Positions 1,045 through 17,749 of a stretch of 64,000 bases of DNA are shown here, in pieces. A program made the position numbers and the translations under genes. Within the stretch, counting starts at the first letter, position 1. Each line of letters opens with the position of its first letter. Under the pieces are notes generated by a model. It was not told the DNA's origin and made no database searches. It saw only the letters and a program-made list of their open reading frames with translations. The stretch is from an uncultured Rivularia sp. (lineage in GTDB: Bacteria > Cyanobacteriota > Cyanobacteriia > Cyanobacteriales > Nostocaceae), in the NCBI GenBank assembly GCA_963665115.1, contig OY762007.1:6048001-6112000 (forward strand), written 5' to 3'.

Positions 1045-1425
1045 ATGACAAATTCGAGTCAACTATTCTCTAAAAAATATCTTCAAGATGGAGATTTTTT
1101 AGTAGCTATTGAGCGCATAAAAATAAAGCACAAATTATTTAGAGTAGTTGCTTATAAATTAGCAACTGGGGAAACTGCTATTACAACTCGACAAATGGCA
1201 GTTTCTGTTAAAAAACCATGCTACACGGCTCGTCAATTCATGCGGAAGATGGGAGTTGAGCCAGTTCGAGTTCAAATGCCCAATCGCTCGGTTACAGATA
1301 TGATTTCCATTTCAATTGTCATGGCTTTCTGGAAATCTCTCAACGAAGAGGGTGAGGGGAATCCACTTACCAAAATAGGTCAAAAATATTTGGACAAATA
1401 TTTAACCGAATCTGAAGTCAGTTAG
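1045..1425 (+). CDS. Hypothetical protein, possibly DNA-binding, first gene of the replication operon
   Basis: 126-aa ATG ORF, basic, co-oriented with the rep-like gene and dnaB. Confidence 0.6.
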   Translation: MTNSSQLFSKKYLQDGDFLVAIERIKIKHKLFRVVAYKLATGETAITTRQMAVSVKKPCYTARQFMRKMGVEPVRVQMPNRSVTDMISISIVMAFWKSLNEEGEGNPLTKIGQKYLDKYLTESEVS

Positions 1426-1487
1426 AGAGGAGGAGGGGAAGAGGAGGGAGGGAGTGAGAGAGTGAGGGAGGGAGGGAGGGAGGAGTG
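1424..1487. repeat. Purine-rich GAGTGAGR/GGGA tandem repeat tract
   Basis: Near-pure G/A tract right after the stop codon; the same unit recurs at 6041-6078, 9600-9630 (reverse) and 13233-13310. Confidence 0.75.
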
Positions 1488-1547
1488 ACAATTGTGATGA
1501 CAATTTTTTGACTTCTGGCTTCAAGCAAACTAAGCAAATCTAGTTAT

Positions 1548-2471
1548 ATGGTACTTCAAAAACAGCCAAATGCTATCTCAGATGGCATTCACAAGAGTGT
1601 GGAAACAAACGGTTTTTATCAAATACCTAATTCAATGGCTATCAAAGCTATTCGTGGGAAACTTACTGCTGCTGATTGGGCTTTATGGTCTTATTTACAA
1701 ATGATAGACCCTTTTGGAGACAAGATGATTGAATTACCAAAAATTCCAGAAATAGCTGAAGCTATAGGAATAAGCTCGCGACAAATCAAACGCTCTCTTT
1801 CGCGTTTGGAAGAATTAGAGCTTTATGTTTGGGAACCGATTTTAGTTCGCGGTCAAAATTTAGCTGGTAAAAAAGCGAAAGAACTTTGTCAACAGAAAAG
1901 AATAAATAAATCCTCTGAAAAAAATAAAATGACAGATTTGTCCGACTCTGGACAATCCTGTCCAAATGATGACAGAATTGTCCAAACCATGACAGATTTG
2001 TCAAAAAATGGACAGAATTGTCCAAATCGAGAGCCAGAACCCTTGCCTAGCAATGGTTCTAAATCCCCTCAGACTTATTCAGACTTTATACAGACTCTCT
2101 CAGAAGGCGAGAGAGAGAATTTTCTGGAATTTTCAAAAAAGAAAGCAGCTTTATTACCCAAACCTCCGCAACTACCTATCAAGTGGATTGAAGCTAACTT
2201 TGAAGATTTACATTGCCAATGGTTGGACACGAAGAAGCAAAATTGTAAATATAACTTCGAGGCTTACAGCGAATCGCAGCACCAAATGTGGTACGGACAA
2301 CTGCAAGTTGTTGTGGAAGGAGCAATCAAGCTCGGTGATGACAAGAATTTGCAGCTATTTTTCAAAGATGATTTTTACAAATGCTGGTTTAATTGGGCGA
2401 AATCAACCCGTGCAGATGTCCGCGAACTTTTAGCAAATAGTCCAATACTGCAACAGAAGAATTATGAGTGA
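1548..2471 (+). CDS. Putative replication initiator (N-terminal winged HTH), lambda O-like organisation
   Basis: HTH-like segment IPEIAEAIGISSRQIKRSLSRLEE; overlaps the dnaB start; contains an internal 20-bp-period palindrome array. Confidence 0.65.
   Translation: MVLQKQPNAISDGIHKSVETNGFYQIPNSMAIKAIRGKLTAADWALWSYLQMIDPFGDKMIELPKIPEIAEAIGISSRQIKRSLSRLEELELYVWEPILVRGQNLAGKKAKELCQQKRINKSSEKNKMTDLSDSGQSCPNDDRIVQTMTDLSKNGQNCPNREPEPLPSNGSKSPQTYSDFIQTLSEGERENFLEFSKKKAALLPKPPQLPIKWIEANFEDLHCQWLDTKKQNCKYNFEAYSESQHQMWYGQLQVVVEGAIKLGDDKNLQLFFKDDFYKCWFNWAKSTRADVRELLANSPILQQKNYE
1931..2022. repeat. Five GACA-N4-TGTC palindromes at exact 20-bp period (iteron-like origin candidate)
   Basis: Units start at 1931, 1951, 1971, 1991 and 2011 (GACAGATTTGTC, GACAATCCTGTC, GACAGAATTGTC, GACAGATTTGTC, GACAGAATTGTC). 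Confidence 0.85.
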
Positions 2472-3810
2472 AAATCTAAGTTTTGTTAGTAGCGACAAAA
2501 TACCTCCTCAAAATATCGAAGCGGAGGAAGCGATTTTGGGTGGTATACTGCTTGACCCCGGAGCGATTGCTAGGGTTAAAGACATTCTTGTTGCAAAAGC
2601 TTTTTACATCAGCGCCCATCGGGATATTTATATCGCTGCCCTAGAACTTCATGGCAAAGGTAATCCCACGGATTTACTTGCAGTTATTAATTGGCTATCT
2701 GACCATAATCAACTTGCAAAAATCGGTGGTAGGAATAAATTAGCGTCCCTTGTAGACCGGACTGTATCGGCAGTTAACATCGATGCCTTAGCGCAATTGG
2801 TGATGGATAAATACTACCGAAGGCAATTGATTCATGTAAGCGGCGAAATTTTCGAGTTGGCGCACGACCAAACTCAAGAGATAGGTAAACAGTTAGAAAC
2901 AGCATTTTCAAAGGTTTTAGAGGTAAATAACAGCGCTATCGCGTCACAATCAGAGCCAACCTCATTGTCGTCTATCCTGATGAATGCTTTTGAACGAATC
3001 GAATCAAGAAATATCGGTACAAGGTCATCCGGGATAACAACTGGGTTTTGTAACCTAAATGCAATGCTAGGAGGATTAAAACCAGAAAAACTTATAACAA
3101 TCGCCGGTCGTCCGGCAATGGGCAAATCATCATTTTTAGGCAATTTAGCTTTTAACATTTCATCGCTAGAATCACTGCCAACCGTAATTTTTAGTCTTGA
3201 GATGGGTAGGGAAGAATGGGGTGATAGATTTTTATCTCAAGATGTTTCTATCGAATCGATTCATCTGCAAAATGGTTCTATTAGTAAATCTCAATGGCAT
3301 CCTTTAGCGAAATCGATTAGTAAGTTAAGCGAACTGCCTATTTACATTGACGATTCGCCTGTATTAACAGTTAATTTGATTCGTTCCAAAGTTAAACAAC
3401 TTATTGCTAAATACAGTCGCATTGGTATGGTTGGAATTGACTATTTGCAATTAATGGAAGGAACGGATGGTGATAATTATAATTTAGCTTTTCAAATAGG
3501 AAAAATTACCCGAGGGTTAAAACAATTAGCACGCGAATGTAACACTACTGTTGTCATATTGTCACAGTTAAATCGTGGTGTAGAAAGTCGAAATATCAAA
3601 CGTCCTGTGATGTCAGACTTAAGAGAATCTGGGCGAATTGAAGAAGATTCGGATTTAGTTTTACTCCTTTACCGTGATGAATATTACCACCCCGATACGG
3701 TTGATAGAGGTATTGCAGAAATAATTGTTGCTAAAAATAGAGGCGGACCAACAGGAACTATAAAACTGCTATTTGACGCACAATTTACTTGTTTTAAAAA
3801 TTTGGCTTGA
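2464..3810 (+). CDS. dnaB: Replicative DNA helicase DnaB (mobile-element copy)
   Basis: PPQNIEAEEAILG N-terminus, Walker A GRPAMGKS, DYLQL, SQLNR, SDLRESG.IEEDSD, KNRGGPTG. Confidence 0.96.
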   Translation: MSENLSFVSSDKIPPQNIEAEEAILGGILLDPGAIARVKDILVAKAFYISAHRDIYIAALELHGKGNPTDLLAVINWLSDHNQLAKIGGRNKLASLVDRTVSAVNIDALAQLVMDKYYRRQLIHVSGEIFELAHDQTQEIGKQLETAFSKVLEVNNSAIASQSEPTSLSSILMNAFERIESRNIGTRSSGITTGFCNLNAMLGGLKPEKLITIAGRPAMGKSSFLGNLAFNISSLESLPTVIFSLEMGREEWGDRFLSQDVSIESIHLQNGSISKSQWHPLAKSISKLSELPIYIDDSPVLTVNLIRSKVKQLIAKYSRIGMVGIDYLQLMEGTDGDNYNLAFQIGKITRGLKQLARECNTTVVILSQLNRGVESRNIKRPVMSDLRESGRIEEDSDLVLLLYRDEYYHPDTVDRGIAEIIVAKNRGGPTGTIKLLFDAQFTCFKNLA

Positions 3811-3821
3811 GGAAGTGAAAA

Positions 3822-4157
3822 ATGAAGATGCTTTTTGATGTAGAACAATACAAGCAACCCAAAAAACAAAGTTATACAGGCGATTGGAATGGTGTTAGAT
3901 ATGACCCCACCTGGGATGAACCCGATGACATACCTGAGTTAAAAAACGAAGTTTCCACACCTGTGGAAGTTTTACAAGAAAAAGAAGAAATACCTCATCA
4001 TACTTCCTTAAACTGCTCGCGGGTAGTACGTAAGAAAAAATCTTCCGATTGCTGGTACACACCACCCTATATCCTTGAATTAGTAGTTCAGGTGCTTGGA
4101 GAAATAGACCTAGACCCTTCTCAAACCTATGCTCAAGGAAGCTTTAGCAGAATTTGA
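3822..4157 (+). pseudogene. 5' fragment of a phage/plasmid-type DNA N6-adenine methyltransferase
   Basis: DCWYTPP...GEIDLDP motif of the phage Dam-like family; similarity stops at about 4117 and the NPPY catalytic motif is absent. Confidence 0.65.
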
Positions 4158-4857
4158 TGCGCCAACAGGAAAGGTAAATGCCAACTTAATCGGTTACGAG
4201 TGTTTTCCTGAAGGTGGTGGAATTTATGCCATGTATTGCAAAAATACGGGTGAAGCAATAAGACGCAAAGTCATCGGTTTGGTGATGTTGGGATATCGAA
4301 ATGCCTCTGCAATCATATCTCGGCGCGGTATTTTGAATCGGGGTAAAACTGCTACATTGGGTATGGCTAAGATGGTAGAAAAAGTTATTGAAGGTACATC
4401 AGGGTTAGAAGCACAAGAATTGATTGAAGCGATTGTAGCTGCTGGTGATGAACCGAAGCCACAACATTTTTACCATCTATATAGTTCTAGTAATCTTCGA
4501 GATACTCAAATTGAAAAGATTATATCTGTTGTAAATTCTTCTAGAGCAGAATATGCGATTGCGCTTGTGAATTGGTTAAAAGAGGTACTGCCGAATAACA
4601 ATGAATTGGATGAATTAATTATCTGTGGTGGTACGGCTGATTATTTGCGAGAAGAGTTAGACGCAGTTTTTCCAACAATACCTATAGTTTGGCATGGAAA
4701 TGTGAACATTCCGCAAACACTTAACGAACAATGGTTGGGGAATCGTTTAGCTGATGTATGGGCGCTTTCGGTTTACCACGGTATTAAAGTTAGAGCAGTT
4801 ATGAGAGAGGTGATGAGTGGGAAAGGAGGAGAAAGCAAAGGGTTAAAAGATGGTTAG
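4129..4857 (+). pseudogene. 5'-truncated ParM/StbA-family actin-like plasmid segregation ATPase
   Basis: PEGGG connect motif, MLGYRNAS, ICGGTA adenosine motif and RLADVW are present; the N-terminal phosphate-1 DxG motif is missing and an in-frame stop lies at 4111-4113. Confidence 0.7.
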
Positions 4858-5318
4858 AAAAAAGGACTTCACATGGCGGTATCAGCCACCTCTGGATTCA
4901 GATAGAGCGACAATGCTTAGCTATATTCAAAATGAAGGGCCTACATCCATTTCAAAATAAAACCGTAATGATAATGACTGCTCTAAATGCATATTACATG
5001 GCTTTAGCACTGTACAGCGAAGGTAGTTATTCTCGCGAAACTTTGGAATTGATATTTCTGGATTCGGTAAAGGCGATCGCAAATCATCTTCAGTACGTCA
5101 GCATTGCGATAAAAGTAGACGAACACGCAGTTACAGATGTTTTATGCACTGTATTTGGAGGATTAGAGACAAGAAAAACTCAAAAAGATACGCCATTACA
5201 ATATAGTACACAATTACCACCATCAGACCAAAATGAAGAATCATCTGATTTAAATTTACAAGCATGGAATTTAGCAGGAATGACAACAGATAGCGAAACC
5301 TTTAACCCCGGAAATTGA
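4850..5318 (+). CDS. Hypothetical protein downstream of ParM (possible partition adaptor), frameshifted near 4939
   Basis: The ATG at 4850 overlaps the ParM stop and reads MVRKKDFTWRYQPP...YIQNEG; removing one base in GGGCC joins it to the 4932..5318 ORF. Confidence 0.55.
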
Positions 5319-5320
5319 TT

Positions 5321-6040
5321 ATGGCAAGAATACATTTAGTTGATGGTGAAAAGGGAGGAGTCGGGAAGTCGCTGTTTACCCGCGTTATGGTGCAGTATGC
5401 AATTGACCATAAATTGGAACATACTTTGGTGGATGCAGATATAACGAATCAAGATGTGAAACGCTTCTATGATTATGCTGTTGATGCTGAATTTAGTGAA
5501 GCTGTAAACAAAGGGGATAAAGCCGACATAATTTTTGAATTAGCTAGGAAAAAACCCGTTATAGTTAATCTTCCCGCGAATGTATTTCCAAAAGTTAATA
5601 ATTGGATAAAAAACGGACGTTTATTGGAAGTTGCAGATAAATACGGTGTAGATATTTGTAAGTGGTTTGTCTGTGATGGTGGTTTTGAATCTATAGATTT
5701 ATTCAAACAATCCATAAAATTGTACAAAGATAAAATGCTTCATGTGTTTGTCAAGAATTTAGGTAAAACAGATGATTGGAGTTTTTTAAAGGATAACCCG
5801 TCCTTTAAAGAGTTGTGTAAAAAGCATGAAAAGACTTTAAAAATAATTGAATTTCCGCTTCTGTATCCGGGAGATAGATATTTTATCGACTCTAATAAGT
5901 TTCGGTTTGATGCAAAAGAAATTGAAGAAATAATGCCTATAATGTCACAGCAAAGATTATTTACTTTTTTAAGCGAATCAAATCAAGCTATTGAAAGTAC
6001 TCAAAGGTGGAAAAAAAGGCAGATGGCAGAAGGTAAATAA
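5321..6040 (+). CDS. MobD-like / ParA-MinD-family P-loop protein
   Basis: Deviant Walker A DGEKGGVGKS, VDAD and IVNLPA motifs; recalled as typical of cyanobacterial plasmid mobilisation regions. Confidence 0.7.
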   Translation: MARIHLVDGEKGGVGKSLFTRVMVQYAIDHKLEHTLVDADITNQDVKRFYDYAVDAEFSEAVNKGDKADIIFELARKKPVIVNLPANVFPKVNNWIKNGRLLEVADKYGVDICKWFVCDGGFESIDLFKQSIKLYKDKMLHVFVKNLGKTDDWSFLKDNPSFKELCKKHEKTLKIIEFPLLYPGDRYFIDSNKFRFDAKEIEEIMPIMSQQRLFTFLSESNQAIESTQRWKKRQMAEGK

Positions 6041-6078
6041 AGAGTGAGGGAGTGAGAGAGTGAGGGAGTGAGGGAGAG
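6041..6078. repeat. GAGTGAGR octamer tandem repeat
   Basis: AGAGTGAGGGAGTGAGAGAGTGAGGGAGTGAGGGAGAG directly after the stop codon. Confidence 0.75.
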
Positions 6079-6154
6079 GTAATTGAATGGAGTTTTAATG
6101 GAGTTTTAGACCCTCCTGTCTCAATAAAAATTACTCATACATGAGGTAAGTAAT

Positions 6155-7153
6155 ATGAATTACGACCTTCAAATTTTATACGAAACCAATCAAGCTTTTA
6201 ACTGCGATGTAGTCACTGCTGATGAAGAGAAATATATGGGAAGACTATATATTCTTACTACAGACGATACTACCTTGAAAAATTTAGGAATTAAAGAAGA
6301 ATGGTACCTTGCTCACGAAGAAGCTGATGTATTAGTTAGCGGACATATTAATAGTGATGGTAAGTGGAGTTTATCAACCTGGAGAAATTTAGAACCAAGT
6401 TTTGAATATACAACTCGTAACAAAATATTTGACCAAGTGTTTAGTCCTGAATATGTTTGGAAACTAATGCATTTTCGTGAAGAAAATATCATAAGCATAT
6501 CTCAAAAAACAAGTATTCCTGACAGCTTTAATGATAGTGATGATAATAATTCAAATGGAATGAATAGAAAATATTTAGGTATTATGCCAGGACAACTAAA
6601 CATTACTACAGAGAATTTGAATATATTACAGGGTTTAATTATGCATTCATATGATTCTTCATCAGTTAATTTAGAGCAAGATTTAGAAACCGAGATTATT
6701 TCTGTATATAACGAGCAAGAATCAGCAATAAAAAGCACAAACATAAATGAAATTATGAACCACTTTCAACGAGAATATGCTCCTTTATTAGATGAAAAGG
6801 AATTATTTCATGCTCAGATAGATTTAACCGAAAGAATCATGGATGAATATGAGAAACGCCAAAAAGACGAGTTTGTCTTTACACCTTTAGGAATTGTCAC
6901 AATAAATGCCGAAGAAAGTTGTTGCAGTTTAAAAGATTCAGAAGATGGTCATACTATATTTACTGCGACTTTTGATGCTGATATTATTCACGGATTAAAT
7001 GATACTGATGCTCTTAAGATTGAAATGATTTTACATCAGTTTGATAGAGAAGATTTTCGACGAGCGAGAAGTATGCTTCAAGAAGAAAAGTTAATTCATC
7101 AAGAAAACGGTTCCCAACTCAACCGAAATGCAGGAATAGATTATGATTTATAG
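6155..7153 (+). CDS. Hypothetical acidic protein
   Basis: 332-aa ORF with a GAGG RBS; no motif recognised. Confidence 0.7.
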   Translation: MNYDLQILYETNQAFNCDVVTADEEKYMGRLYILTTDDTTLKNLGIKEEWYLAHEEADVLVSGHINSDGKWSLSTWRNLEPSFEYTTRNKIFDQVFSPEYVWKLMHFREENIISISQKTSIPDSFNDSDDNNSNGMNRKYLGIMPGQLNITTENLNILQGLIMHSYDSSSVNLEQDLETEIISVYNEQESAIKSTNINEIMNHFQREYAPLLDEKELFHAQIDLTERIMDEYEKRQKDEFVFTPLGIVTINAEESCCSLKDSEDGHTIFTATFDADIIHGLNDTDALKIEMILHQFDREDFRRARSMLQEEKLIHQENGSQLNRNAGIDYDL

Positions 7154-7808
7154 TTTACGAAAAGCGAAAAATGAAAGTTATCTGAATAAGTTACTTGAAG
7201 GAAAAGATGCGGACTTTCAAAGAAGAGTTTTAGCTGTAGCTGTTGAACATGGGTTATCTACAAGTGACCCTTTATTTCTAATAATGATTTCCACTGGTCA
7301 ACTTCAAGTTTTGTTGGAAGATAAACCGAGTGAATTAGACCAATTATTTAAACGTTGGTCGGAAGCAATTTACGAACATTTGGAGAAAGCAAAGCGTACT
7401 GCTGTAAGTGGTCAGGAAGTGGAAATCCGTTCGATGGTAAACCGGCTTATTAAGCATTGTGAGTCGAAAGAGAGAAGCCGTTTAGTAGTAATGTTACCAG
7501 CGATAGGGCTAATAATAGCAGCAATTGGGTTTGGTGTTTTGACTGGGTTATCTGTTCCGGTATGGCTGGCTGGTGGTTATGCGTCTGGAAAGCCGAAGTT
7601 ATTAACAGTTGAACAAGTTGAAAGTTTACGGTGGTTAAAAAGTTCTCAAGGTCGCTTAGCAAGGAATATTGTTACTTGGAATTCTGAAAGTTTGAGCAAT
7701 TTAAATTGCACTAATAATCCGGAGCAAAGGGCTGTAGTTAATAATGCTAAAGGCAAACATATTACTCGTAAAAGTGATTATTGTTTATTGCGGGTTAAAT
7801 CACCTTAA
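7143..7808 (+). CDS. Membrane-anchored plasmid protein (DUF6753-like)
   Basis: DPLFLIMISTGQLQVLLEDKP segment, one hydrophobic TM stretch, W..S.QG.LA..I..WN motif; family assigned from recall. Confidence 0.55.
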   Translation: MIYSLRKAKNESYLNKLLEGKDADFQRRVLAVAVEHGLSTSDPLFLIMISTGQLQVLLEDKPSELDQLFKRWSEAIYEHLEKAKRTAVSGQEVEIRSMVNRLIKHCESKERSRLVVMLPAIGLIIAAIGFGVLTGLSVPVWLAGGYASGKPKLLTVEQVESLRWLKSSQGRLARNIVTWNSESLSNLNCTNNPEQRAVVNNAKGKHITRKSDYCLLRVKSP

Positions 7809-7849: not shown

Positions 7850-8651
7850 ATGATGGAAGAATTAACTTGTTACTATAATCAACAAGAATATTGTCAACTA
7901 CCAGAAAATAAACAATTAGATACTAATTCGCCACTCATTTATAAAGACAGTAATTTTAAAAATATCGATAAAATTCGTGCAGTTGTTGTTGAAGACCAAG
8001 AACTAATAGTTATCGGTATCAAGAAAGCATTAGAGCAATATGAAAACATTGAAATTGTTGGAGATGCTTTTAATGCAAAACACGGTTTGACGCTGTTAAA
8101 TAACCTAAAACCTAAAATTGCCATTGTTGATATTTGTTTACCGGATTTTGATGGGATTCAACTAACCAGAGAAATCAAAAGAAAACATTCAGGGGTAAAA
8201 GTCATAATCCTAACTTCGCACTCAGACAGAGAAACTGTGTTGAAAGCATTTGCTGCGGGTGCTACTTCTTATTGCATGAAAGATATTAAATTTGCAAAAT
8301 TAATCGAAGCGATATATCTTACCTGCCTTGGCTACAACTGGATAGACCCCGGCTGTTACCCATTTTGTACTCCAGCAAGCTCAGAAAAATCCCATATGTT
8401 TCAACCGGGATGGTTCCAGAAGTTATGACGATTTAGATGAAGAAATGCTTGACCTGTACACTCTGACAGGCAGGGAATTGCAGATATTAGACCTAATTGT
8501 GAATGGGAATACTAATGCGGCGATCGCCAATCAACTTCATATCACAATCGGAACCGTGAAAAGCCACGTTCGCAATATTCTCAACAAAATTGGTGCAGAA
8601 GACCGTACTCAAGCAGCTGTTCATGCTTTGCGTTACGGCTTAGTGGATTGA
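7850..8651 (+). CDS. NarL/LuxR-family response regulator, frameshifted at the C-run 8347-8350
   Basis: Receiver domain (VVED, VDICLPDFDG, LTS, YCMK) and LuxR HTH (LTGRELQIL...TVKSHVRNILNK); removing one C gives the continuous WIDPAVTHFVLQQ...EEMLDL. Confidence 0.88.
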
Positions 8652-8680: not shown

Positions 8681-9550
8681 ATGGCTCAGTTTGATTTGAA
8701 TAATATCCTACAGCAAATAGAACAAGAAATTGAAATCGATGCCCAAGGTCGTGGGAAAGCTAGCATCCGGGCTACCGCTAGATTAGCTGGTGTAAGCGAT
8801 ATGGCATTAAGAAAAGCTTTTACCAGTGCGAACCTAGAGCCAAATGAATTAGCGAAAAAGCTTATAGGTCAAGGTTTTGATGCTGCGAACCTTCAGGATT
8901 GGTCTACATATAGAATACCTGACATTGCCATTTCTACAATTTTAGAATATTACGCTTTCGATGCCCGCAGGTATTGCACGGAACAAGCCAGGTTGACATA
9001 TAAAGCTTTCGCCACCGTTGGAATTCGTAGTTGGATACAGCAAATTAAAAATTGGCAGCAATCCAAACAAGAAGTTGTTTCAGACCAGCCTAGTGTAAAA
9101 GATATTTCGGAAGCAATTTCATCAGTTTTCTGCTTAGGAACAATTAACCCGAATCTCGTACAGGGTTTAATTGCCAATGAAATAGGTAAAGCATATCCTC
9201 ACCTCAAAGCCCAAATGGAGGCTGTAAAGCAATTGCTACCAACTCCTGTTGAAGATGAGTTAGTCACTGTTACTAACCTTGCCAAACTGTATATGGAGCA
9301 TGGAGGTAAAAAATTGAATCAAAATAATAGCAGCCAAAGTAATGCAAAGCTTATGAATAAAATTTTGATAAACAAGGGGATGCAATTCAAAAATCCTAAT
9401 TCCGATGCGAAAAAGAATGGACAACCTTTATATTTACCAACTGAGTTAGGTAAGCAGTATAGTAAAGTCATATTACAAGAAGCAAATAGAAGCAATAAAA
9501 CAATTCAACAATTGCGGTGGTTTCCGGCGGTTTTGGGTTTGATTGATTAG
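8681..9550 (+). CDS. Putative DNA-binding protein, phage antirepressor-like
   Basis: N-terminal HTH-like SIRATARLAGVSDMALRK; C-terminal winged-helix-like MNKILINKGMQ...PTELGKQY...QLRW. Confidence 0.5.
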   Translation: MAQFDLNNILQQIEQEIEIDAQGRGKASIRATARLAGVSDMALRKAFTSANLEPNELAKKLIGQGFDAANLQDWSTYRIPDIAISTILEYYAFDARRYCTEQARLTYKAFATVGIRSWIQQIKNWQQSKQEVVSDQPSVKDISEAISSVFCLGTINPNLVQGLIANEIGKAYPHLKAQMEAVKQLLPTPVEDELVTVTNLAKLYMEHGGKKLNQNNSSQSNAKLMNKILINKGMQFKNPNSDAKKNGQPLYLPTELGKQYSKVILQEANRSNKTIQQLRWFPAVLGLID

Positions 9551-9639: not shown

Positions 9640-12600
9640 TTACCCTTGCTGTAAACCTTTCTGCTCTTGGAAAGCACCATGCTCAAAACTTTTCTTCTCA
9701 TCCTCTGTAAAATTGCATACTAAAACTGGTTTTCCTCTTTGTGCCTTGTATAAAGTCCCGCGATGATTTTCCTTCTCATCAACAATCCGCAGCATTTCTG
9801 AAGGTATATGGTGAATAACTCGATATTTACCATCCCCAAAAGTTGCTGTTTGTATTTCCTCATCAGCATTCGCGGGATTTTCTTTTAAACTCGCAAGAGC
9901 CTGTTTTAACATCTGCTTTTCCCATTCTTCGCGTTTTACTGATACGGAAGTTTCTGGAAGAGGTAAAGGAGATAAATTTGAATTATTTTCTTTGGAGGCT
10001 GCTATGTGTGTATTATTCTCAACAGAATTTGTTTCATGAATCGCTTTAACTTCAACTTGTTGAGTTTTTGACTCCTTTATTTGATTTTTATTGCCGATTT
10101 CATTAATCAACTCTCGTAATTCATTCAACTCAATTGCGATAAATTTAGTTCTTTGTCCATTTTGTAACTGGTCGTATTCTAGAGGGAAATTTAATGTATC
10201 TTTGATTCTAGCTGCTGTTTTCTGTTCTGAAACCTTTGTAGGAACAGTAACACAAAAATAAAGTTCTTCAATATTGTCCTTGTTAGCGATACCAATCAAG
10301 CTTTCAACACCAAATTTTTTATCAATCTCCTCAGATAGTTTCTGAAAAACTTCTGGTTCTATATTTTTTTCTTTCAAAAAAGATTCAAAATATTCATTTT
10401 TTATAGGTAATACACCTAAAGATGCTTCCGAGTCATGCAATAAACCTTTGTTCTCTTTCTCGTGATAAATTTCATTGAGAATTTGTTTTAATTCATCTAA
10501 TAAACTTTTTTTATTGTCTGTAACTAGAGGTTCTTCTTTTATCCAAGTTTGAGGATATTGGATTGTTTGGGGGTCAACTTTTATATGAGCAATAGTAGCA
10601 GGTGATGATTCAAGCTTTCCTTCAAACTTAAATCCTTCGATTTGAATACCTCTTGAATTCAATTTTTCACTTAATACTTTGAATGATTCTTTATCAATTA
10701 CTCCCAAAGGTTTATCATCAACTAAAGCAATGGGTTTAACGGAAGAACCAACATTAGAAAGTTTAATTTTTACTATGCCTTGCTCTCCATTCCATTCTCT
10801 TGAAACTGCATCATATTTTTTCAACTGTCCCACTTTCAATTGATTACCTTTGGTACTTGTGATAACAACCGATGCGCTTGGTGGAGAAGTGATTTCTGCA
10901 CTAAAAGAAGTACCGATAGGTAACTGTGCTGATTCGCTACGAAATACCCCCAATTTTTTATCTTCAGCTACTAACCAACGTTTATTTTGTGTTGGATTAG
11001 CAGGGGTCGGGTGCTTGTTCGATAGTACATTCAACTTTTTCACCTACCCATTTACGTCCCAAATGTTCGTTACAGGGTTTATGGGTTCCCACAACTGCGA
11101 ATTCAGTAAATTGCAGTTTTTCTAATCTTCCAATTATTTCTTCTCCAAATACAGCGAATGCAGCTGATGTTTTGTTAAATCCATATTTTGCATCATCTTT
11201 GCTCGTTGTTGAAATCTGCCACATTGCAGCTGCAACTGCTTCTTTTTCTGAGTCAGGAATAGTTTCACGAGTTGTAGTTGCGAATTCTTTTACTTGTTTG
11301 AAAGCTGCTCTAACTTGACTTGATGTCAATCCAGGTTCAATTTTTTTGGTTAAATTTTTGAATTCGGTGAATGGTTTAATACGACCTTGAAATTGCTCTA
11401 AAGAAGTTTCTGAAATATAACCTAAGTGTTTGCGCTGTTGCTGACCGTTGGTTTTTACCTTCGGTTTTCCGCGTTCGTCGAGTACAGGTGCTATAGCTAT
11501 CCATTTGTTATCGACTTTATTGAAGTGATTTTTATTTTCTATTAATGAAATATTAAGTTTTCGATTCTCAAAGATATTTGGATGTTTTTTCTGAGATAAA
11601 CCAACAATTTCTATTTGAAGACCTTTAGGATTAATTGCAACAATTTTTAAACCTGGTGCTTGTTTAACTTCTTTACTAATTTGAATTGCACGACGAATCA
11701 ATGAATCGTATATTTTCTTTATATTAACTGCTTTTTGTTTCTGTGCGGGTGTAAATTCAACTCCATTAAAAAAGTTTTGAAACTGTTGGGTTGAACGCGG
11801 TACAATTGCGCTTTGTGCGAATGCTTCATTGGTTATACTCGCCATTTTATCGATAGCGGAGTGACCTTTGACATTCATTGTCTTTTTAGTATAAATTTCA
11901 TTATTATTTCTATCTTCAACCCACGGAGCAATATCAAAGCTTTTGATAATGTTATTACAGGCATTTACTATTTTTGGGTCGGAGCGATTAGCACTTTTAC
12001 CTCTATCAACTTCGATTTGTAGCTGTCCTCCTAAAGTTCCTACAACATCGTGATAAAATTTACCAATTTTTTCTAAAATATGTTCAATTTTTGATTCGGG
12101 GATTCGAGGTAGACTTTTATTGTGTTGTGGTAGTTTATTTATTTCAGTTTTATTTTGAGCTTCTGGTTGACACAACTGTGCTAATTCAACTATTTGCGTT
12201 CGGAGATTTTCTGGATATTGAATTGGGTGAGTGTGATGGTTTTCGGCTTTTAAAATTTCTACTGCTGCACAAGAAATATCTTTAATGAATTTCTGGGCTT
12301 CTTTCGGTGGAATTGAGATACATTCATTTTCAAGAGCAATTCCTTTCATGCATAAATTAGCAACTATGCCAATTTTATTCTCCATCGCATCTAACGCTAT
12401 TTGCTCAAAAGAACCCTTATATGCTTTTTTCTCTGGCTTAACTATTTCGGAATAACGGTTTTCTTTTAGTTGCTTCTGTTTAATTTCTGCTGTCGTGTGA
12501 GGGAAGTCAGATGATAAGGCGATCGCCATTCTATCTCCGTCACAATCGGATAGCGAATGCTTTAATCCTTGGGGTGACATTTTTATCGTGCCAATATCGT

Positions 12601-14086
12601 GCGGTTCGTTTGGTAAATGACGATTGATATAAACGTCCACCGTGTTGGAATTAGCAGTGGGACCGCGATAAACGGTTAAGGAAGCACCATCTGGGAATTT
12701 AGGGTAACAAACTTCATTTTTCTCTAAATCATGACAAGTTTGCGCCATTGCTGAATCAAATTTGATAAATCTTCCTGTAGCGCAATCCATATACTGTTGT
12801 TTCAAGTGTTCTTGAAGTTTATCTATGATTTTGGGATGCTCCAATAATTGACAATGTTCTTTCAAATCTGCTTTGAGAATGCGATATATCAAGTTTTGCT
12901 CGCAATCATTTGACAAAAACATATCATCAATTAGATTTTCAATATCTCCTAAATCAAAGCTTTCAAAATCAATCAAATCTTCAGATTCTGTCTGAGCTTG
13001 TATTTGATGTTTACATTTAGCATCTATTGAATCGATATAGTCTTGAGCGATTTTTCTGGGGTCATTAGCCATATCTTTGAGTTCTTCCAAACGTCTTTGC
13101 AATCGTGGAAGAACATCACCTTCTACTCCTCTAGGAAAAGAATTCCAAAATTGAGCGCCCGTGGAAGTGATACCGTGATATGCATTGGTCTTGTTTCCAA
13201 TTCCCATCTTCATTAGGTATTCCCCAGGTTTTAGAGGAGTGGGGGAGGGGGTGATGGGGGGAGTGGGGGAATGGGAGAGTGAGGGAGTGAGGGAAGTGGG
13301 AGTGAGGGATTGGTCTACAACAATATTCGTTCTTTCTGTACCTGCTGTATACTCTCGTTCATTCCCTCTCTCTCTCCCTCCCTCCCTCTCTCGCTCTTTC
13401 CCCCTCTCTCCCGCTCTCCCACTCCCCCACTCCTCTTTCTGTACTCGTCCTTTGAGTTGTTCGCTCGAAATTACCAAATCATATCCATTCCCTACCTGAC
13501 TTAAATCCCGTGGCGCAAATGTACCTTTTCCCAATTGCCAAGTTTTATTAATGTCATTATTTTGGTTAAGCCCAGCACGTCTTTCTTTGATACCAAACCG
13601 AGTTTGAAATGGTGTTTCTGGCTCATTACCTAAAGACTTATGTAATACAGCATCTATTTTCCCATCACCATCACCAACTAACTTAATTGCTTCAGAATTT
13701 GGCATCACCCCACCATTCTCACCAGTGTCAGCATCCACAACTAAAACTCGTAAATTTTCTCGTTCAGAAAAACTTTGACAGGGTGTAAACATATTGGAAC
13801 CATATGCAGCACCGAAGTGGGGTTCGTCAAAAATCTTTTCTCGCAATTCCTCATCCATAAAGTAGAAGCGATTATCGGCTGCAAATTGCAGTGTTAATCC
13901 TTCTGTTGTAAATTGTTTGAGGTCTTCTTCTGTTGATAATCCCTGATATACTATTCCCAACTTGAAAGTAGAACTTTGAGCAAAGTATTCTGCCAAGCAG
14001 TGTTCAATTGTTTCTGTAATTGGTTCTCCGTCCGCGATAATTGGTTTACCCGTTTTTGTGCAGAAGTGGGAGAGGGTAATTGCCAT
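9640..14086 (-). CDS. Large single-subunit two-barrel RNA polymerase (cellular RdRP/YonO-like), about 1480 aa, frameshifted near 11005
   Basis: Ordered motifs GDGDGKI, FQTRFG...LGKG, YRGP and catalytic SDCDGD (12533-12547), then GIVAN and EVDRGK; removing one base of the G-run at 11004-11007 joins ORF 10997..14086 to 9640..11043 (EQAPDP-ANPTQNK). Confidence 0.75.
13233..13436. mobile_element. 204-bp MITE-like inverted-repeat element inserted in frame in the polymerase gene
   Basis: Perfect 15-bp terminal inverted repeats AGAGGAGTGGGGGAG (13233-13247) and CTCCCCCACTCCTCT (13422-13436); arms of purine/pyrimidine octamers; length equals 68 codons. Confidence 0.7.
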
Positions 14087-14154
14087 AACCTTCTATGCCT
14101 CAATTCATCAAGTTACCTTCAAATCTAGTTTTTACGGATTGATGCATAGTAGTT

Positions 14155-14184
14155 CTTTAGTGAAGAATATTTCTATCACTAAAG
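14155..14184. promoter_or_regulatory. Palindrome in the divergent intergenic region upstream of the polymerase gene
   Basis: CTTTAGTGA (14155-14163) / TCACTAAAG (14176-14184), with inner AGAA/TTCT pairing. Confidence 0.4.
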
Positions 14185-14263
14185 TAGTATTTTTGTTCTT
14201 AAAGCCTTAGTTTTTGTTTACTATGGGGATTAAGTAACAAACATTCTTTGAGGATATTGAGTT

Positions 14264-14518
14264 ATGGATAGTGCGAAAAAAGTAGTATTACAACCGAATG
14301 TTTGGGATACAGATAATTTGGGAGATTTAGTTGCCGAAGGGGTTTTGGGCAGTGATGATTTGTCTTTACACGGTGTTGTTCAAGCGCAGAATGAAGAATA
14401 CGAGCGTAAGGAGCGAGAATGGCAAGAAGAAAATGAAAAATATTTAAACTCTATTGATTGGGAAAGTAAAGCAGTTAAGTATGAACCAACAAAGGAAGAA
14501 GAGGAGGAAGTTTTTTAA
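14264..14518 (+). CDS. Small acidic hypothetical protein
   Basis: 84-aa ATG ORF with a GAGG RBS; very E/D-rich. Confidence 0.6.
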   Translation: MDSAKKVVLQPNVWDTDNLGDLVAEGVLGSDDLSLHGVVQAQNEEYERKEREWQEENEKYLNSIDWESKAVKYEPTKEEEEEVF

Positions 14519-14648
14519 GAATATAGACAAATTTCAACGAAAAAATATCAAGAGTATTTGGTCTTGGCTTGCTTTTTAGCTTGCATACTACAAAGAAAGC
14601 TAAAGCTTATTTTCAGTACTTGATAAGAAGTAATAACTTAAGAAAAAA

Positions 14649-14663
14649 TCCCCCATCGGGGGA
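14649..14663. terminator. Hairpin between convergent genes, probable terminator for the minus-strand gene
   Basis: TCCCCC-ATC-GGGGGA preceded by an A-run (a U-tract on the minus strand). Confidence 0.5.
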
Positions 14664-14683
14664 AATGTTATTTAAAATCAGCA

Positions 14684-14947
14684 CTACTGCACGGTGATTG
14701 CACGTACCAAAATACTCATTACCTCTCCTGGATTAGAAGTTGGTAACAACGGAGTCCAATCCCGTACATTTGCATAGCCAAGTTGATGTAAAACCTGAAT
14801 TGTCGCTATTACTGCTTTACGGGAGCCAGTTAGTATATGCTTGATTCTTTCTGGTTCCGGAGGTTGAGATATTATAGGCTGAGGACTCACAATAGCTTTT
14901 TGTTGATTTCTCGCATCACTCAGAAAATTTCGATACTCTGATTTCAT
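14684..14947 (-). CDS. Conserved cyanobacterial hypothetical protein
   Basis: 87 aa with an HILTGS..AV..TI..LH.LGYA...DW..L.P...GEVMSIL pattern recalled from small cyanobacterial proteins. Confidence 0.7.
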   Translation of the reverse strand: MKSEYRNFLSDARNQQKAIVSPQPIISQPPEPERIKHILTGSRKAVIATIQVLHQLGYANVRDWTPLLPTSNPGEVMSILVRAITVQ

Positions 14948-14971
14948 TATTTATTCACCGCTATTACGATT

Positions 14972-15241
14972 TCATTTTTGACTCCCCGTGAGGGGTTTTA
15001 CTAGCTGCAAGTATTCAGTTTCGAGGCAATTATTTGTCCTGAAATAAAGTCGAAACGAACCGTCCCCGTATTGCTTTAATCCTTGTTCACAGAAATGAAT
15101 TTATTGTCTTTGAAGCCATTGAATAATGCTTTCGTAATTATCAGTTAAGAAAAGTGCAGGAAAATAAATTCGTCCGGTTTTAACTCCAGTTTTTGGGTGA
15201 GTAAATATTTGAAATTGCGGCTCGCTTAAAACTTCAGCCAT
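14972..15241 (-). pseudogene. Hypothetical gene with an in-frame premature TAA at 15101-15103
   Basis: MAEVLSEPQF...WLQRQ*IHFCEQGLKQYGDGSFRLYFRT...LTGSQK*; the frame stays open for 42 more codons after the stop. Confidence 0.55.
14984..14995 (-). promoter_or_regulatory. Mini-hairpin CCCC-GTGA-GGGG, putative hairpin promoter 1
   Basis: 36 nt upstream of the 14947 ATG; same architecture as 16620 and 17347. Confidence 0.5.
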
Positions 15242-15329
15242 TACTATTACTTTGTGAAAATACTTTGAATAATTTTGAAAGCTTGTGATAGATAAATTGA
15301 AGTACCTTGACACAAGATTTCCTAAAAGA

Positions 15330-16067
15330 TTAATTAGATAGTGACTCGGAATATTTCACGAAATTCGAGATTTTCCAGTTCAAACCATGCACTTTATCAG
15401 CAATATTTGGCTTAGAAGAATTGCCATCACATAGCATACAAAATTCACATTTTATAATGTCATTTTCAGTGTGACGACAAAGGATTTCGTTATCACTTAA
15501 AGGTGCATCGGGAGCCATAATCCTAAAAGTTCTCCAGCCTTTACTTTGAGCAATACGAGCTTCCGATTCGCTTTGTACTGAAGCCATCAAATATGTTTGC
15601 CAGCGTTTGTCGCAGTCATTGCGAAACCATTGATGTGTGTAGCCAGTATATCCAACAGATGCAGAAATAATCGGTTCCCAGACATCGAATGGTACTGCTG
15701 TAGGGTCGCCATATGAACCAATTCTGATAGGATAACGATAATACTTTAAAAGTTCTATTTCATTTTTGCTGAGTTTTGAGTAAGTACCTGCTACATATTT
15801 TCGGTACATATTATTTATTGGAGCGAGATTGACATAGCAGCTTCCTGTTTTGCTCAATTTTAAACTACAAGAGCCACAAATACCTCGATCCAAACCTTGC
15901 TTTGCAGCAAAAGTGGGAACGAATTCTTGTTGTAAAACCCAGCTTTGAATCATCCTTCCGGTTTTGCGATTTGAACTAGGAGAAACAAAGCCTGTCAAAA
16001 TCAGAACTATAGGAGAACCGTCAATTAAAGATGCCCCTTCCCAAACTATATAACTATTTTTCAACAT
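15330..16067 (-). CDS. Cys-rich phage/plasmid protein, possibly Fe-S binding (Gp88/DUF7227-like)
   Basis: SNRKTG, CGSC...GSCYV, IRIGSYGDP, GYTHQW, LMASV, GWRTFR and C-terminal C..C.LCDG motifs; family assigned from recall. Confidence 0.6.
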   Translation of the reverse strand: MLKNSYIVWEGASLIDGSPIVLILTGFVSPSSNRKTGRMIQSWVLQQEFVPTFAAKQGLDRGICGSCSLKLSKTGSCYVNLAPINNMYRKYVAGTYSKLSKNEIELLKYYRYPIRIGSYGDPTAVPFDVWEPIISASVGYTGYTHQWFRNDCDKRWQTYLMASVQSESEARIAQSKGWRTFRIMAPDAPLSDNEILCRHTENDIIKCEFCMLCDGNSSKPNIADKVHGLNWKISNFVKYSESLSN

Positions 16068-16152
16068 ATTAATAGCGGACAAATATTTTGATTTTTCTGA
16101 AGCGAAAAGTATTTGAAATGATGATGTATGTGAAATAATCTACGACACCAAA

Positions 16153-16182
16153 AAGGGGAATAAAATCAACTTTATTCCCCTT
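16153..16182 (-). terminator. Rho-independent terminator after the 16207..16584 gene
   Basis: AAGGGGAATAAA-N6-TTTATTCCCCTT stem followed by a T-run on the minus strand. Confidence 0.7.
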
Positions 16183-16206
16183 GAATTCTGGTTTATAATT
16201 TCAGTA

Positions 16207-16584
16207 TTAATTCTCGGCTTTCATTTGAGGATTAACACTTGCATTTACCCTCTGGGCATATTCCCTCCTGCGCTGCCAAGATAATTCGTTTAGTACTACT
16301 AAATCTTCCTTAGTTTTACCAAATTTACGATTAGCGAATTCAAGCAGTTGTTCAAGGGAATAGCGCTTTTCTTCTACTTTTCCAAAATCAGTTGCGAAGC
16401 GCTCTTTAAATACATCCCAATTAAAGTTTTGAAAACTGTTTTTAGCAAGAAGTCCGCATAAAGACCGTATGGAATAGTAGACTTTAGAGTAAAGTCTTTC
16501 TGAGTAATCGCTAACTGAATACTCGCCTAAAACGGAATCATCGATTGCTTGAAAGTTTGGTGCAGAGGATTTACGTGTAGCCAT
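16207..16584 (-). CDS. Hypothetical protein
   Basis: 125-aa ATG ORF with an AGGAG RBS and a downstream terminator. Confidence 0.7.
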   Translation of the reverse strand: MATRKSSAPNFQAIDDSVLGEYSVSDYSERLYSKVYYSIRSLCGLLAKNSFQNFNWDVFKERFATDFGKVEEKRYSLEQLLEFANRKFGKTKEDLVVLNELSWQRRREYAQRVNASVNPQMKAEN

Positions 16585-16619
16585 AAGACAGATATCTCCT
16601 AAATTTTCATTGCTCTATT

Positions 16620-16631
16620 GGGCGTAAGCCC
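16620..16631 (-). promoter_or_regulatory. Mini-hairpin GGGC-GTAA-GCCC, putative hairpin promoter 2
   Basis: Intergenic, 35 nt upstream of the 16584 ATG. Confidence 0.55.
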
Positions 16632-16671
16632 TCTTTCTATTGGATTATTTCAGTACGTTAAGTTTCGGTAA

Positions 16672-16917
16672 TCAGCACCAAGATGAATCGTGATAATCTG
16701 CCATTAAATCCTTGATTTCACAGTTGTGCTGATAATCAATTTCTAACTGTTGAAAGTCTGTATCTAATGCTAGATTTTTCAATTCTTGTATCATTTCTTT
16801 AACATGATTTTCATCACTGATACCTGAGTAGTAAACTTTGATAAATTTGTCAGCTTTAGTCATGAATTGTTCTAGATTTGTGACGAAACCCTGTTCTGTT
16901 TCAATTGCTTGAATCAT
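16672..16917 (-). CDS. Small acidic hypothetical protein
   Basis: 81-aa ATG ORF with an AGGAG RBS. Confidence 0.65.
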   Translation of the reverse strand: MIQAIETEQGFVTNLEQFMTKADKFIKVYYSGISDENHVKEMIQELKNLALDTDFQQLEIDYQHNCEIKDLMADYHDSSWC

Positions 16918-16947
16918 GATTTTCTCCTATAAACTATTTGAAGCGAT

Positions 16948-17310
16948 TTAGTATTCGTTTGGAAGCATGAGGACTTTTTCAACCAGATAGAGCTTGATAT
17001 GATTCAATGGAAAATCTGTATATTCAATTTCTTGCCGTAATACTTCTTGATTCGTATCCCATTCGCATATCAAAATTCCGGAATTATCTTGAACTTGTAA
17101 ATGCCAAATTTGAAATTCTCGGAGTTTTGGATTCGATAGGAATTGTTTCGTTTGATGTGAAGCGATTGCATCTAATAACCAATAGCAGTTAGCTTCTTGC
17201 GCTAGGTATTGGATTCCTTCAGTGTATTTTAAGCCGAGCCAGTGTTTGTAGAGAGTGACTGAACCATAAAATTGTTTTAGCTCGATGGTTATTTCTTGTG
17301 AAGTTTTCAT
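16948..17310 (-). CDS. DUF6876-like plasmid/phage protein
   Basis: F.GS...YKH...YTEG..YLA....YWLLDAIAS...QEIEYTDFPL..IKLY.....LMLPNEY pattern; family assigned from recall. Confidence 0.7.
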   Translation of the reverse strand: MKTSQEITIELKQFYGSVTLYKHWLGLKYTEGIQYLAQEANCYWLLDAIASHQTKQFLSNPKLREFQIWHLQVQDNSGILICEWDTNQEVLRQEIEYTDFPLNHIKLYLVEKVLMLPNEY

Positions 17311-17346
17311 TTTTTCAAAATCATTTTACGAACTTCACAACTTCAT

Positions 17347-17358
17347 CGGCGTGAGCCG
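17347..17358 (-). promoter_or_regulatory. Mini-hairpin CGGC-GTGA-GCCG, putative hairpin promoter 3
   Basis: Intergenic, 36 nt upstream of the 17310 ATG. Confidence 0.55.
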
Positions 17359-17749
17359 TAAAACGATAACTGCTGATAATAGATGCCAGCAGTTAAAAGA
17401 TTTTAAAAATCTTTTATGAAAACATTTTTTTTATTTAATATATTTTTTTATAAACTAAAATAAATTTCGATGGCTATAGATAGTTAAATGATGATGTTTT
17501 GTCAGATAGAGACTTTTTTCTCATCGTGGTAGTTCAATACCTTTAATTATATTTTCGGACGATTTTGAACGTACAAATTTTATCAATTATTTATCTCAAA
17601 ATCCAAAATTATTGAATGACTACGACCAAAAAGTTATACATCAAGATATTAGCGAGAAAGATTCTAAAGTGGTAAATTTCTGCTATCGAGTCAAACATTT
17701 GTACGAGCAATGGAAAATAACATGAATCTTACACGTACCTAATTTCATA

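Follow-up and report, generated by a model that had tools for sequence, protein, structure and literature searches.

Template-strand mini-hairpins ahead of leading-region genes as candidate promoters of a two-barrel polymerase in cyanobacterial conjugative elements

Introduction

In the 64,000-nucleotide stretch of DNA of an uncultured Rivularia sp. that has been analysed here (the window), a gene for a putative single-chain polymerase lies next to a run of small genes, and this arrangement raises the question of whether a mobile element could express its first genes with an enzyme of its own. The cyanobacterial YonO-like/RdRP-like family was noted earlier by bioinformatics (PMC2919709, PMC5467207 and PMC3417536, each available in part), and it is common, yet has been an orphan since that description. 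In a literature search carried out mostly without subscription journals, no paper on the promoters of this family was found, and no function for it was found in the literature examined. A candidate promoter makes the polymerase directly assayable with short oligonucleotides.

Results

The polymerase and its element

The polymerase gene and the features around it are the following:
4129..7808, plus strand: mobilisation-type context, with a partition protein (4129), a TraL/MobD-like ATPase (5315) and DUF6753 (7143)
9640..14086, minus strand: predicted two-barrel (RdRP/YonO-like) single-chain polymerase gene, about 1480 aa if unbroken
12533..12547, minus strand: catalytic DCDGD motif (aa 514-518), located with a 20-sequence alignment
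14264..14518, plus strand: gene for an acidic product of 84 aa, oriented divergently to the polymerase gene and retained next to close relatives of the polymerase

One extra base at 11003, absent from two of three near-identical public assemblies, splits the polymerase gene in the present assembly into two frames on the minus strand, an ORF of 1029 aa (10997-14086) and another of 467 aa (9640-11043), which are considered a single gene because full-length homologs (1452-1478 aa) aligned over both in 5/5 cases tested. Residues D514, D516, G517 and D518 were invariant in the 20 aligned sequences. Pfam and PDB sequence searches with the polymerase gave no match. The top Foldseek matches of its predicted model (pLDDT 80) were RDR2/QDE-1 (E 1.4e-10), Thermus phage single-chain RNAPs were matched with E 2e-7 to 4e-7, and no T7-like structure was found among the listed matches. 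PF05183 is present on 67% of the members of the corresponding Atlas cluster, which is a lead only. The original prediction of an RdRP/YonO-like polymerase is supported by this fold and the DCDGD motif, and the assignment to the RdRP/QDE-1-fold two-barrel enzymes was confirmed with the predicted model. The family is present in 82 of the 151 genomes of the host's family and on 96 PLSDB plasmids; no relatives were found in the viral contigs searched.

Residence of the polymerase gene in an integrated conjugative element was confirmed, with coupling-protein and mating-pair genes represented by VirD4-like (E 1e-30), TrbI/VirB10 and FtsK-like matches. Queries with MOBV, MOBP and MOBF relaxases gave no match in the window element, and a MOBP relaxase is carried at the corresponding place by its close relatives. 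The window copy is not a clean example, being frameshifted in the present assembly and belonging to an element without a detected relaxase.

The gene block and its hairpins

The block of small genes contains these features:
17347..17358, plus strand: mini-hairpin CGGC-GTGA-GCCG on the template strand, 36 nt from stem end to the DUF6876 ATG
17334..17338, minus strand: RTGAA element 8 nt past hairpin 17347, predicted initiation region
16948..17310, minus strand: DUF6876 gene (PF21781, E 4e-44), 120 aa, heading the block
16672..16917, minus strand: 81-aa gene without its own hairpin, TCGCTTCA upstream
16620..16631, plus strand: mini-hairpin GGGC-GTAA-GCCC on the template strand, 35 nt from stem end to the ATG of the 125-aa gene
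16606..16610, minus strand: RTGAA element 9 nt past hairpin 16620
16207..16584, minus strand: 125-aa gene, family unassigned, with homologs in 40/151 family genomes
16153..16182, minus strand: terminator-like hairpin 3' of the 125-aa gene
15330..16082, minus strand: 250-aa gene, phrog_2554 (function not known), without a hairpin, TCGCTTCA upstream
15101..15313, minus strand: 70-aa gene without a hairpin in the window
14984..14995, plus strand: mini-hairpin CCCC-GTGA-GGGG on the template strand, 36 nt from stem end to the ATG of the 87-aa gene
14971..14975, minus strand: RTGAA element 8 nt past hairpin 14984
14684..14947, minus strand: 87-aa gene, final gene of the block
14649..14664, minus strand: terminator-like hairpin at the block end, ahead of the polymerase gene

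The three template-strand hairpins that had been proposed at a fixed distance from an ATG were recovered at 14984, 16620 and 17347, with spacings of 35-36 nt; no hairpin was found upstream of the polymerase gene itself. This absence, the frameshift and the RTGAA elements add to what had been noticed at first. In the 8.69 Mb genome, N7-10-RTGAA follows 58 GC-rich hairpins with a 4-bp stem, 10 of them with a TYAC loop, and the window hairpins exceed chance because all 10 fall within four copies of the window gene block, although these ten represent three orthologous positions and not independent events, independence being provided by other genomes. A strict 25-nt pattern was searched in 301 genomes of the order, giving 7 matches in the window's genome and one in each of 11 others (the control level); the exact window form is lineage-specific, since the pattern repeats only in the window's genome.

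The motif across polymerase loci

A de novo search in 80-83 polymerase loci gave C-TNAC-G as the top loop before ORFs (55 distinct sites, versus 6 for the next). The conserved hairpin lies 28-50 nt ahead of genes, and 30-45 nt ahead of many of the small ones. In a set unselected for pairing, 102 CTNACG sites were found before 1278 ORFs, versus 14 for the reverse-complement loop. The next three stem pairs beyond this core were kept in 90, 77 and 57 of the 102 sites, with all four pair types, and the fifth was at chance (22/102), so that the stem covariation noticed at first in the window is supported; alignment A3 was selected for pairing, and no covariation statistic has been drawn from it. 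For comparison, the host genome has 51 CTNACG sites in 6532 ORFs, 19 of them paired.

All of the sites scored (32/32 and 24/24, total 56/56) share the orientation of the relaxase, and the hairpins keep the relaxase strand in both orientation groups between which the polymerase gene flips. For MOBP elements, an established convention links relaxase orientation to the transferred strand, and by this convention the relaxase-co-oriented template would be the strand that is transferred. The 56/56 agreement places a stable hairpin of the GCGNNAGC type on the template strand, which is likely also the transferred one. As to the nick, a candidate motif was seen upstream of mobV. GCGNNAGC is described as an extraordinarily stable DNA mini-hairpin (PMC13037366, available in part).

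Co-occurrence of hairpin and polymerase

As anticipated, the hairpin was enriched on plasmids with the polymerase: the core precedes 47/1387 ORFs on 9 polymerase-positive plasmids versus 4/633 on 5 negative ones, in a scan that covered about 104 of the 190 kb of W03; W05, W12 and W16 were typed for polymerase only. These negative plasmids are few, mostly MOBF and of unmatched lineages, and since the plasmids are related to one another, the correlation could arise from shared inheritance alone. DUF6876 genes were preceded by the hairpin on 5/5 polymerase-positive plasmids versus 0/6 copies on negative ones. Of 30 loci for which homology to the 125-aa protein was the sole selection criterion, 27 had the core 32-40 nt upstream, and the polymerase is present in 36 of the 40 genomes with the 125-aa gene versus 47 of the 111 without it. 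Hairpins were also found ahead of the ssb genes of plasmids W06, W07, W08, W15 and W19. When an AT-rich plasmid was tested blind for the GC core, the score was 1/18, and the 13/18 obtained with weaker 2-3 bp stems is a post hoc count. Frpo-type promoters are silent in vegetative growth and induced on transfer; on pCC7120beta, none of the five motif genes is in any of 54 transcription units, but a 57-kb stretch with three of them is silent anyway.

Discussion

Proposed mechanism

The reading considered probable, from sequence comparison and structural modelling, is that the element's own predicted polymerase transcribes leading-region genes from single-stranded DNA by means of the hairpins. The single-chain two-barrel enzyme, as the putative reader, would recognise the GCGNNAGC-type mini-hairpin on the DNA single strand that reaches the recipient in conjugation, and would start RNA some 9-12 nt downstream, presumably at RTGAA/TGTTG. 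The products would be short-leader mRNAs of leading-region genes made without host sigma factors, and conversion to double-stranded DNA would silence the promoters. On W07 and W15, both MOBP plasmids, the gene for the polymerase is directly behind the relaxase gene and would be the last to arrive; its product would therefore need to be synthesised in the donor and carried across. Such carriage into the recipient, by analogy with the virion polymerase that N4 carries, is a speculative step. More tentatively, the elements may send their polymerase, as a protein, across the mating pore along with the T-strand; its reading of GCGNNAGC hairpins would drive an early programme that is phage-like and independent of sigma factors, and might also prime the second strand, with enzyme/promoter variants co-evolving as orthogonal pairs.

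Alternative explanations

The main rival, although rather unlikely, is that the polymerase is a primase and the hairpins are ssi signals for RNA primers of the complementary strand after transfer, with mRNA secondary or absent. The strand placement and the co-occurrence data fit this explanation too. Such mini-hairpins are present in the primase origins of G4, St-1 and alpha3 and in the RepB' ssiA, and GCGTTAGC, the sequence of St-1/alpha3, is exactly complementary to the common GCTAACGC variant (PMC13037366). A primase role was suggested by Iyer and Aravind, as cited in the accessible part of PMC3417536, and one polymerase homolog has a Prim-Pol fusion and another a RecD-like helicase fusion. 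However, priming needs neither the fixed 28-45 nt spacing to start codons nor 12 hairpin copies each heading a small gene, as found on W09, and the units are closed by terminator-like hairpins.

Somewhat less likely still, the hairpins could be single-stranded promoters read by host RNAP or another element factor, as in Frpo, with the polymerase as a co-inherited passenger. Frpo-type promoters employ host RNAP (PMC9849209, available in part), and hairpins do occur without the polymerase: at two convincing sites on polymerase-free W10, in a block copy at 6.293 Mb in the window's genome with no polymerase nearby (another copy is 80 kb from one), and in draft genomes G312 and G372, in which hairpins are intact and the polymerase was looked for and not found, G372 being in 330 contigs and the absence in G312 resembling a recent deletion. 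Conversely, pCC7120alpha (W01) has the polymerase and only three doubtful cores in 372 ORFs (pairing 6/17, no excess), and copies whose polymerases share only 32% identity have block proteins that are 67-96% identical. Against a passenger role, no -35/-10 boxes were found in or near the 8-12 nt hairpin, which is too small to contain them, and sigma70-like sites (9 found versus 12.8 expected) include none serving the three window hairpins. Furthermore, DUF6876 genes of polymerase-free plasmids have no hairpin. As judged from the loci compared, the motif variant tracks the polymerase subfamily and not the host: long polymerase forms go with TNAC plus GAA (59/87; 9/15), and the short 885-aa form with TAYC plus TGTTG (12/18), a variant common to Anabaena and Planktothrix plasmids.

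It is improbable that the motif acts in RNA, as a UNAC-loop hairpin in the 5'-UTR serving stability or the binding of a protein, or in double-stranded DNA, as an operator to which a repressor or activator of the plasmid binds. UNAC RNA tetraloops are a known motif, the fixed ATG spacing suits a leader element, and the coding-strand hairpin folds nearly as well, since nearest-neighbour DNA folding favours the template strand by only 0.3 kcal/mol. Nevertheless, stem covariation speaks against a double-stranded operator, strict relaxase co-orientation has no reason at the RNA level, and the triloop variant ahead of ssb on W18 (template GCGAAGC) obeys DNA mini-hairpin rules. No upstream promoter was found, and Rfam gave no family at the hairpins, with only sub-threshold miRNA matches on a low-complexity inverted repeat. 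Two other sources were rejected: mimicry of the host CRISPR repeats, which hold CCCC-TCAC-GGGG (20/33 all-GC matches), as other sites differ in stem and lack the repeat handle; and dispersed TNAC-loop repeats, common in the genome but without spacer-TGAA and ATG spacing.

If transcription by the element's polymerase is true, plasmids would have a second route to early expression on single-stranded DNA, one that does without host RNAP, and a defined DNA template would be assigned to the bacterial enzymes related to the RNAi polymerases of eukaryotes. In cyanobacteria the motif would flag genes of the leading region, which are anti-defence candidates, and orthogonal pairs of polymerase and 8-nt promoter could be useful tools. 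Should the polymerase also be delivered, this would be the first plasmid-borne single-stranded DNA transcription system and the first known promoter of a bacterial RdRP-like enzyme.

Comparison with known systems

The best structural matches are QDE-1/RDR2, with QDE-1 structures that include complexes with a DNA template, and the Thermus phage proteins P74-26 gp62 and P23-45 gp64, but identity is 10-11% and TM 0.33-0.42, and their roles are in eukaryotic silencing or lytic phages. TraC and Sog are co-transferred plasmid primases, and plasmid primases resemble the present system in being large element-encoded enzymes near the relaxase. Primase signals (G4/St-1/alpha3 origins, RSF1010 RepB'-ssiA) share identical mini-hairpin sequences on single-stranded DNA (PMC13037366, in part), whereas their enzymes are DnaG or AEP and the signals are not placed ahead of start codons. 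YonO of the B. subtilis prophage SPbeta is likewise a single-chain two-barrel enzyme with DxDGD, but it transcribes late phage genes, and in the accessible portions of PMC2919709, PMC5467207 and PMC3417536 its promoter is not established.

Frpo/ssi of F and ColIb-P9 also lie ahead of leading genes including ssb and are predicted to be active only on incoming single-stranded DNA (PMC9849209, in part). Frpo is a long stem-loop that rebuilds -35/-10 for host sigma70 RNAP, in contrast to the 8-12 nt hairpin without boxes described here, one per gene or small unit and tied to the element polymerase. The N4 virion RNAP uses a single-stranded template with a template-strand mini-hairpin that has a C:G closing pair and a G...A loop (PMC4496689, in part), and the same closing pair and G...A loop are found in the cyanobacterial hairpins, with a loop usually of 4 nt and not 3. 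The N4 hairpin has a fixed spacer to the start; here a conserved element lies 8-10 nt past the hairpin. In N4 the enzyme is T7-like and its hairpin combines a loop of 3 nt with a 5-7 bp stem, whereas the present enzyme is predicted to be two-barrel, with loops mostly of 4 nt and stems of 2-4 bp, and is carried on conjugative elements.

Polymerase gene and its genomic setting

The polymerase gene, the block of small genes beside it and the neighboring features in the window are the following:

1045-3810: replication-initiator-like gene and DnaB helicase, at the place of the MOBP relaxase region of relatives
7850-8651: NarL-type response regulator in two ORFs (receiver 7850-8428, HTH 8445-8651); homologs in the genome match the two parts as neighbors
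8681-9550: 289-aa gene convergent with the polymerase gene, its product weakly resembling the BstA abortive-infection family (phrog_6287, E 1.5e-8)
9640-14086, minus strand: polymerase gene
13235-13434: low-complexity purine/pyrimidine inverted repeat, an in-frame insertion in the polymerase gene encoding a disordered loop (aa 217-281) and the source of spurious Rfam miRNA matches
14984-14995, 16620-16631 and 17347-17358, plus strand: template-strand mini-hairpins
16082-16110 and 16917-16960, minus strand: second short motif, TCGCTWCA, ahead of two hairpin-less block genes
16207-16584, minus strand: 125-aa gene
16948-17310, minus strand: DUF6876 gene
17370-17410: inverted repeat with a 7-bp stem (coding strand: ACTGCTG...CAGCAGT), immediately upstream of the first hairpin and conserved in the three other block copies, whose similarity stops there
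29701-63916, minus strand: very long ORFs (up to 3346 aa), a length that suggests a biosynthetic cluster

The polymerase is encoded by a single gene split into two ORFs (1029 and 467 aa), as all five homologs tested (1452-1478 aa) span both, and alignment to homologs places the frame change near 11005. An extra base at 11003 was present in one and missing from two of three near-identical public assemblies, all from one study and with one run possibly the source of the window DNA, which makes the break either a variant or an error of assembly. The DCDGD motif was invariant across a 20-sequence alignment. Pfam and PDB sequence searches gave no match; the best structural matches of the AlphaFold model (pLDDT 80) were RDR2 and QDE-1 (E 1.4e-10), followed by single-chain RNAPs of Thermus phages.

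The family was found on 96 plasmids, all listed hosts being cyanobacteria, and in 82 of 151 genomes of the host's family; a search of viral contigs revealed no relatives. In the passages of PMC2919709, PMC5467207 and PMC3417536 that concern it, it appears only as a predicted YonO-like family. In distant homologs (P0107, P0115, P0142, P0150, P0193) the polymerase is joined to a SLOG (cpYpsA), Prim-Pol/PriCT-2 or RecD-like helicase domain, and Acidobacteriota is the commonest phylum of related Atlas clusters. Plasmid W06 (L210-L217) carries long (1498-aa frame) and short (787-aa frame) polymerases a few kb apart.

In the genome (8.69 Mb, single contig), which has its closest protein relatives in Rivularia/Calothrix-type Nostocales, an integrated conjugative element bears the polymerase and hairpin block at one of its ends. 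VirB10-like, FtsK-like and VirD4-like genes lie upstream, followed by replication initiator, DnaB, partition protein, TraL/MobD-like ATPase and DUF6753. The same genome contains five transfer modules related to one another and four paralogs of the polymerase (32-47% identity). Close relatives of the element have a MOBP relaxase beyond MobD; relaxase queries gave no match in the element itself, and this copy may be immobile.

Hairpin motif

The three hairpins of the original prediction are present 35-36 nt ahead of an ATG, each with an RTGAA element 8-9 nt past it. The genome has 10 such composites, all of them within four copies of the gene block. No sigma70-like site serving the window's hairpins was found; behind two of the three hairpin-headed units there are terminator-like stems.

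When GC-rich hairpins of 4 bp located ahead of ORFs were counted without bias in 80 polymerase loci and three plasmid stretches, the C-TNAC-G loop was found at 55 distinct sites, against 6 for the next loop. When CTNACG was selected before 1278 ORFs without regard to pairing, 102 sites were obtained (14 for the reverse-complement control); the next three pairs were kept in 90, 77 and 57 of them with all pair types, which bears out the proposed stem covariation, and the fifth was at chance level. The host genome had 51 CTNACG sites in 6532 ORFs, 19 of them paired. The conserved template-strand core, SCG-NN-AGS, is by its sequence the GCGNNAGC DNA mini-hairpin, described in PMC13037366 as extraordinarily stable with a sheared G-A pair.

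Two CRISPR arrays of the genome (G000:C1 1448688-1460124) have a repeat with a CCCC-TCAC-GGGG hairpin identical to site 14984. TCGCTWCA also precedes DUF6876 on polymerase-free Acaryochloris plasmids (L176, L142) and is the loop of a longer stem in L038, L048 and L049; genome-wide it was not enriched (16 vs 15 for the complement).

Association of hairpin and polymerase

The anticipated enrichment was observed: on nine plasmids with the polymerase, 47 of 1387 ORFs had the core ahead of them. The count was 4 of 633 on five plasmids without it, controls that are few and unmatched in lineage, and 19 of 6532 in the host genome. DUF6876 genes had it on 5/5 positive plasmids (W03 and W04 judged by eye from upstream sequence, the script having picked an earlier ATG) vs 0/6 copies on negative plasmids, one with only 36 nt of upstream sequence available. 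It was found at 27 of 30 loci chosen by homology to the 125-aa protein, and the polymerase in 36/40 genomes with this gene vs 47/111 without it, kin not being independent. The core heads ssb, a textbook leading gene (PMC9849209), on five plasmids, and its triloop form precedes ssb of W18; in W20 polymerase and ssb are both broken and the ssb hairpin has decayed.

The hairpin variant tracks the polymerase form. TNAC and GAA are the partners of long polymerases, and TAYC and TGTTG accompany the short 885-aa form on plasmids of Anabaena and Planktothrix; on W09 a tandem series of 12 genes is headed in this way. A blind GC-core test on an AT-rich plasmid with the short form gave 1/18, and T[AT]TC loops with at least 2 closing pairs, a pattern picked post hoc, occurred at 13/18 (shuffle mean 0.6, maximum 5); protein may be needed to fold these weak stems.

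Reading of the hairpins by the host RNAP or another factor is rather improbable. There are exceptions that count against the link to the polymerase. Plasmid W01 has the polymerase, and a clear motif set was not found there; Microcystis plasmid W10 has two good sites and no detectable polymerase, and one block copy in the window's genome has none nearby. Genomes G312 and G372 keep hairpins, and the polymerase was sought there and not found; G312 is 95-99% alike to W08 and lacks its polymerase-bearing segment. On W10 (L168 and L167), a distinct GGTGTAAA lies downstream of one triloop hairpin and of two cores alike.

Strand and proposed mechanism

As a rule the relaxase gene enters the recipient last, and by this rule genes pointing the same way would have the transferred strand as their template. 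Sites lay on the relaxase strand in 32/32 cases at 19 loci with polymerase and block in the same direction and in 24/24 at 15 convergent loci, groups defined by MobD orientation (relaxase itself observed in 12/19 and 14/15, respectively). Complete plasmids gave 3/3 (W04), 4/4 (W07), 5/6 (W15), 4/5 (W06) and 3/3 (W03). For the MOBV nick there is a candidate motif only. That the hairpin acts as an RNA element or a dsDNA element is very doubtful.

The polymerase probably binds the mini-hairpin on the ssDNA that enters the cell and initiates RNA synthesis some 9-12 nt beyond it, so that the mRNA leaders would measure about 25 nt; once the duplex forms, transcription would be switched off. On W07 and W15, with the polymerase gene behind the relaxase, the protein would have to come from the donor. 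In a Nostoc PCC 7120 transcript table (PMC10287535 supplement, 54 pCC7120beta rows), none of five motif genes, the relaxase or the polymerase was transcribed, which is compatible with transfer-only expression, weakly because a long stretch is silent anyway.

Comparison with known systems

According to PMC13037366, the GCGNNAGC mini-hairpin occurs in G4/St-1 primase origins and ssiA as well as in N4 promoters; priming in place of transcription is nevertheless judged unlikely here, transcription being preferred. A literature search for this polymerase-hairpin pairing found no description; its separate parts and analogies are already known. As described in PMC4496689, N4 vRNAP binds a hairpin and starts RNA downstream of it, the mode of action proposed here for an enzyme of a different fold.
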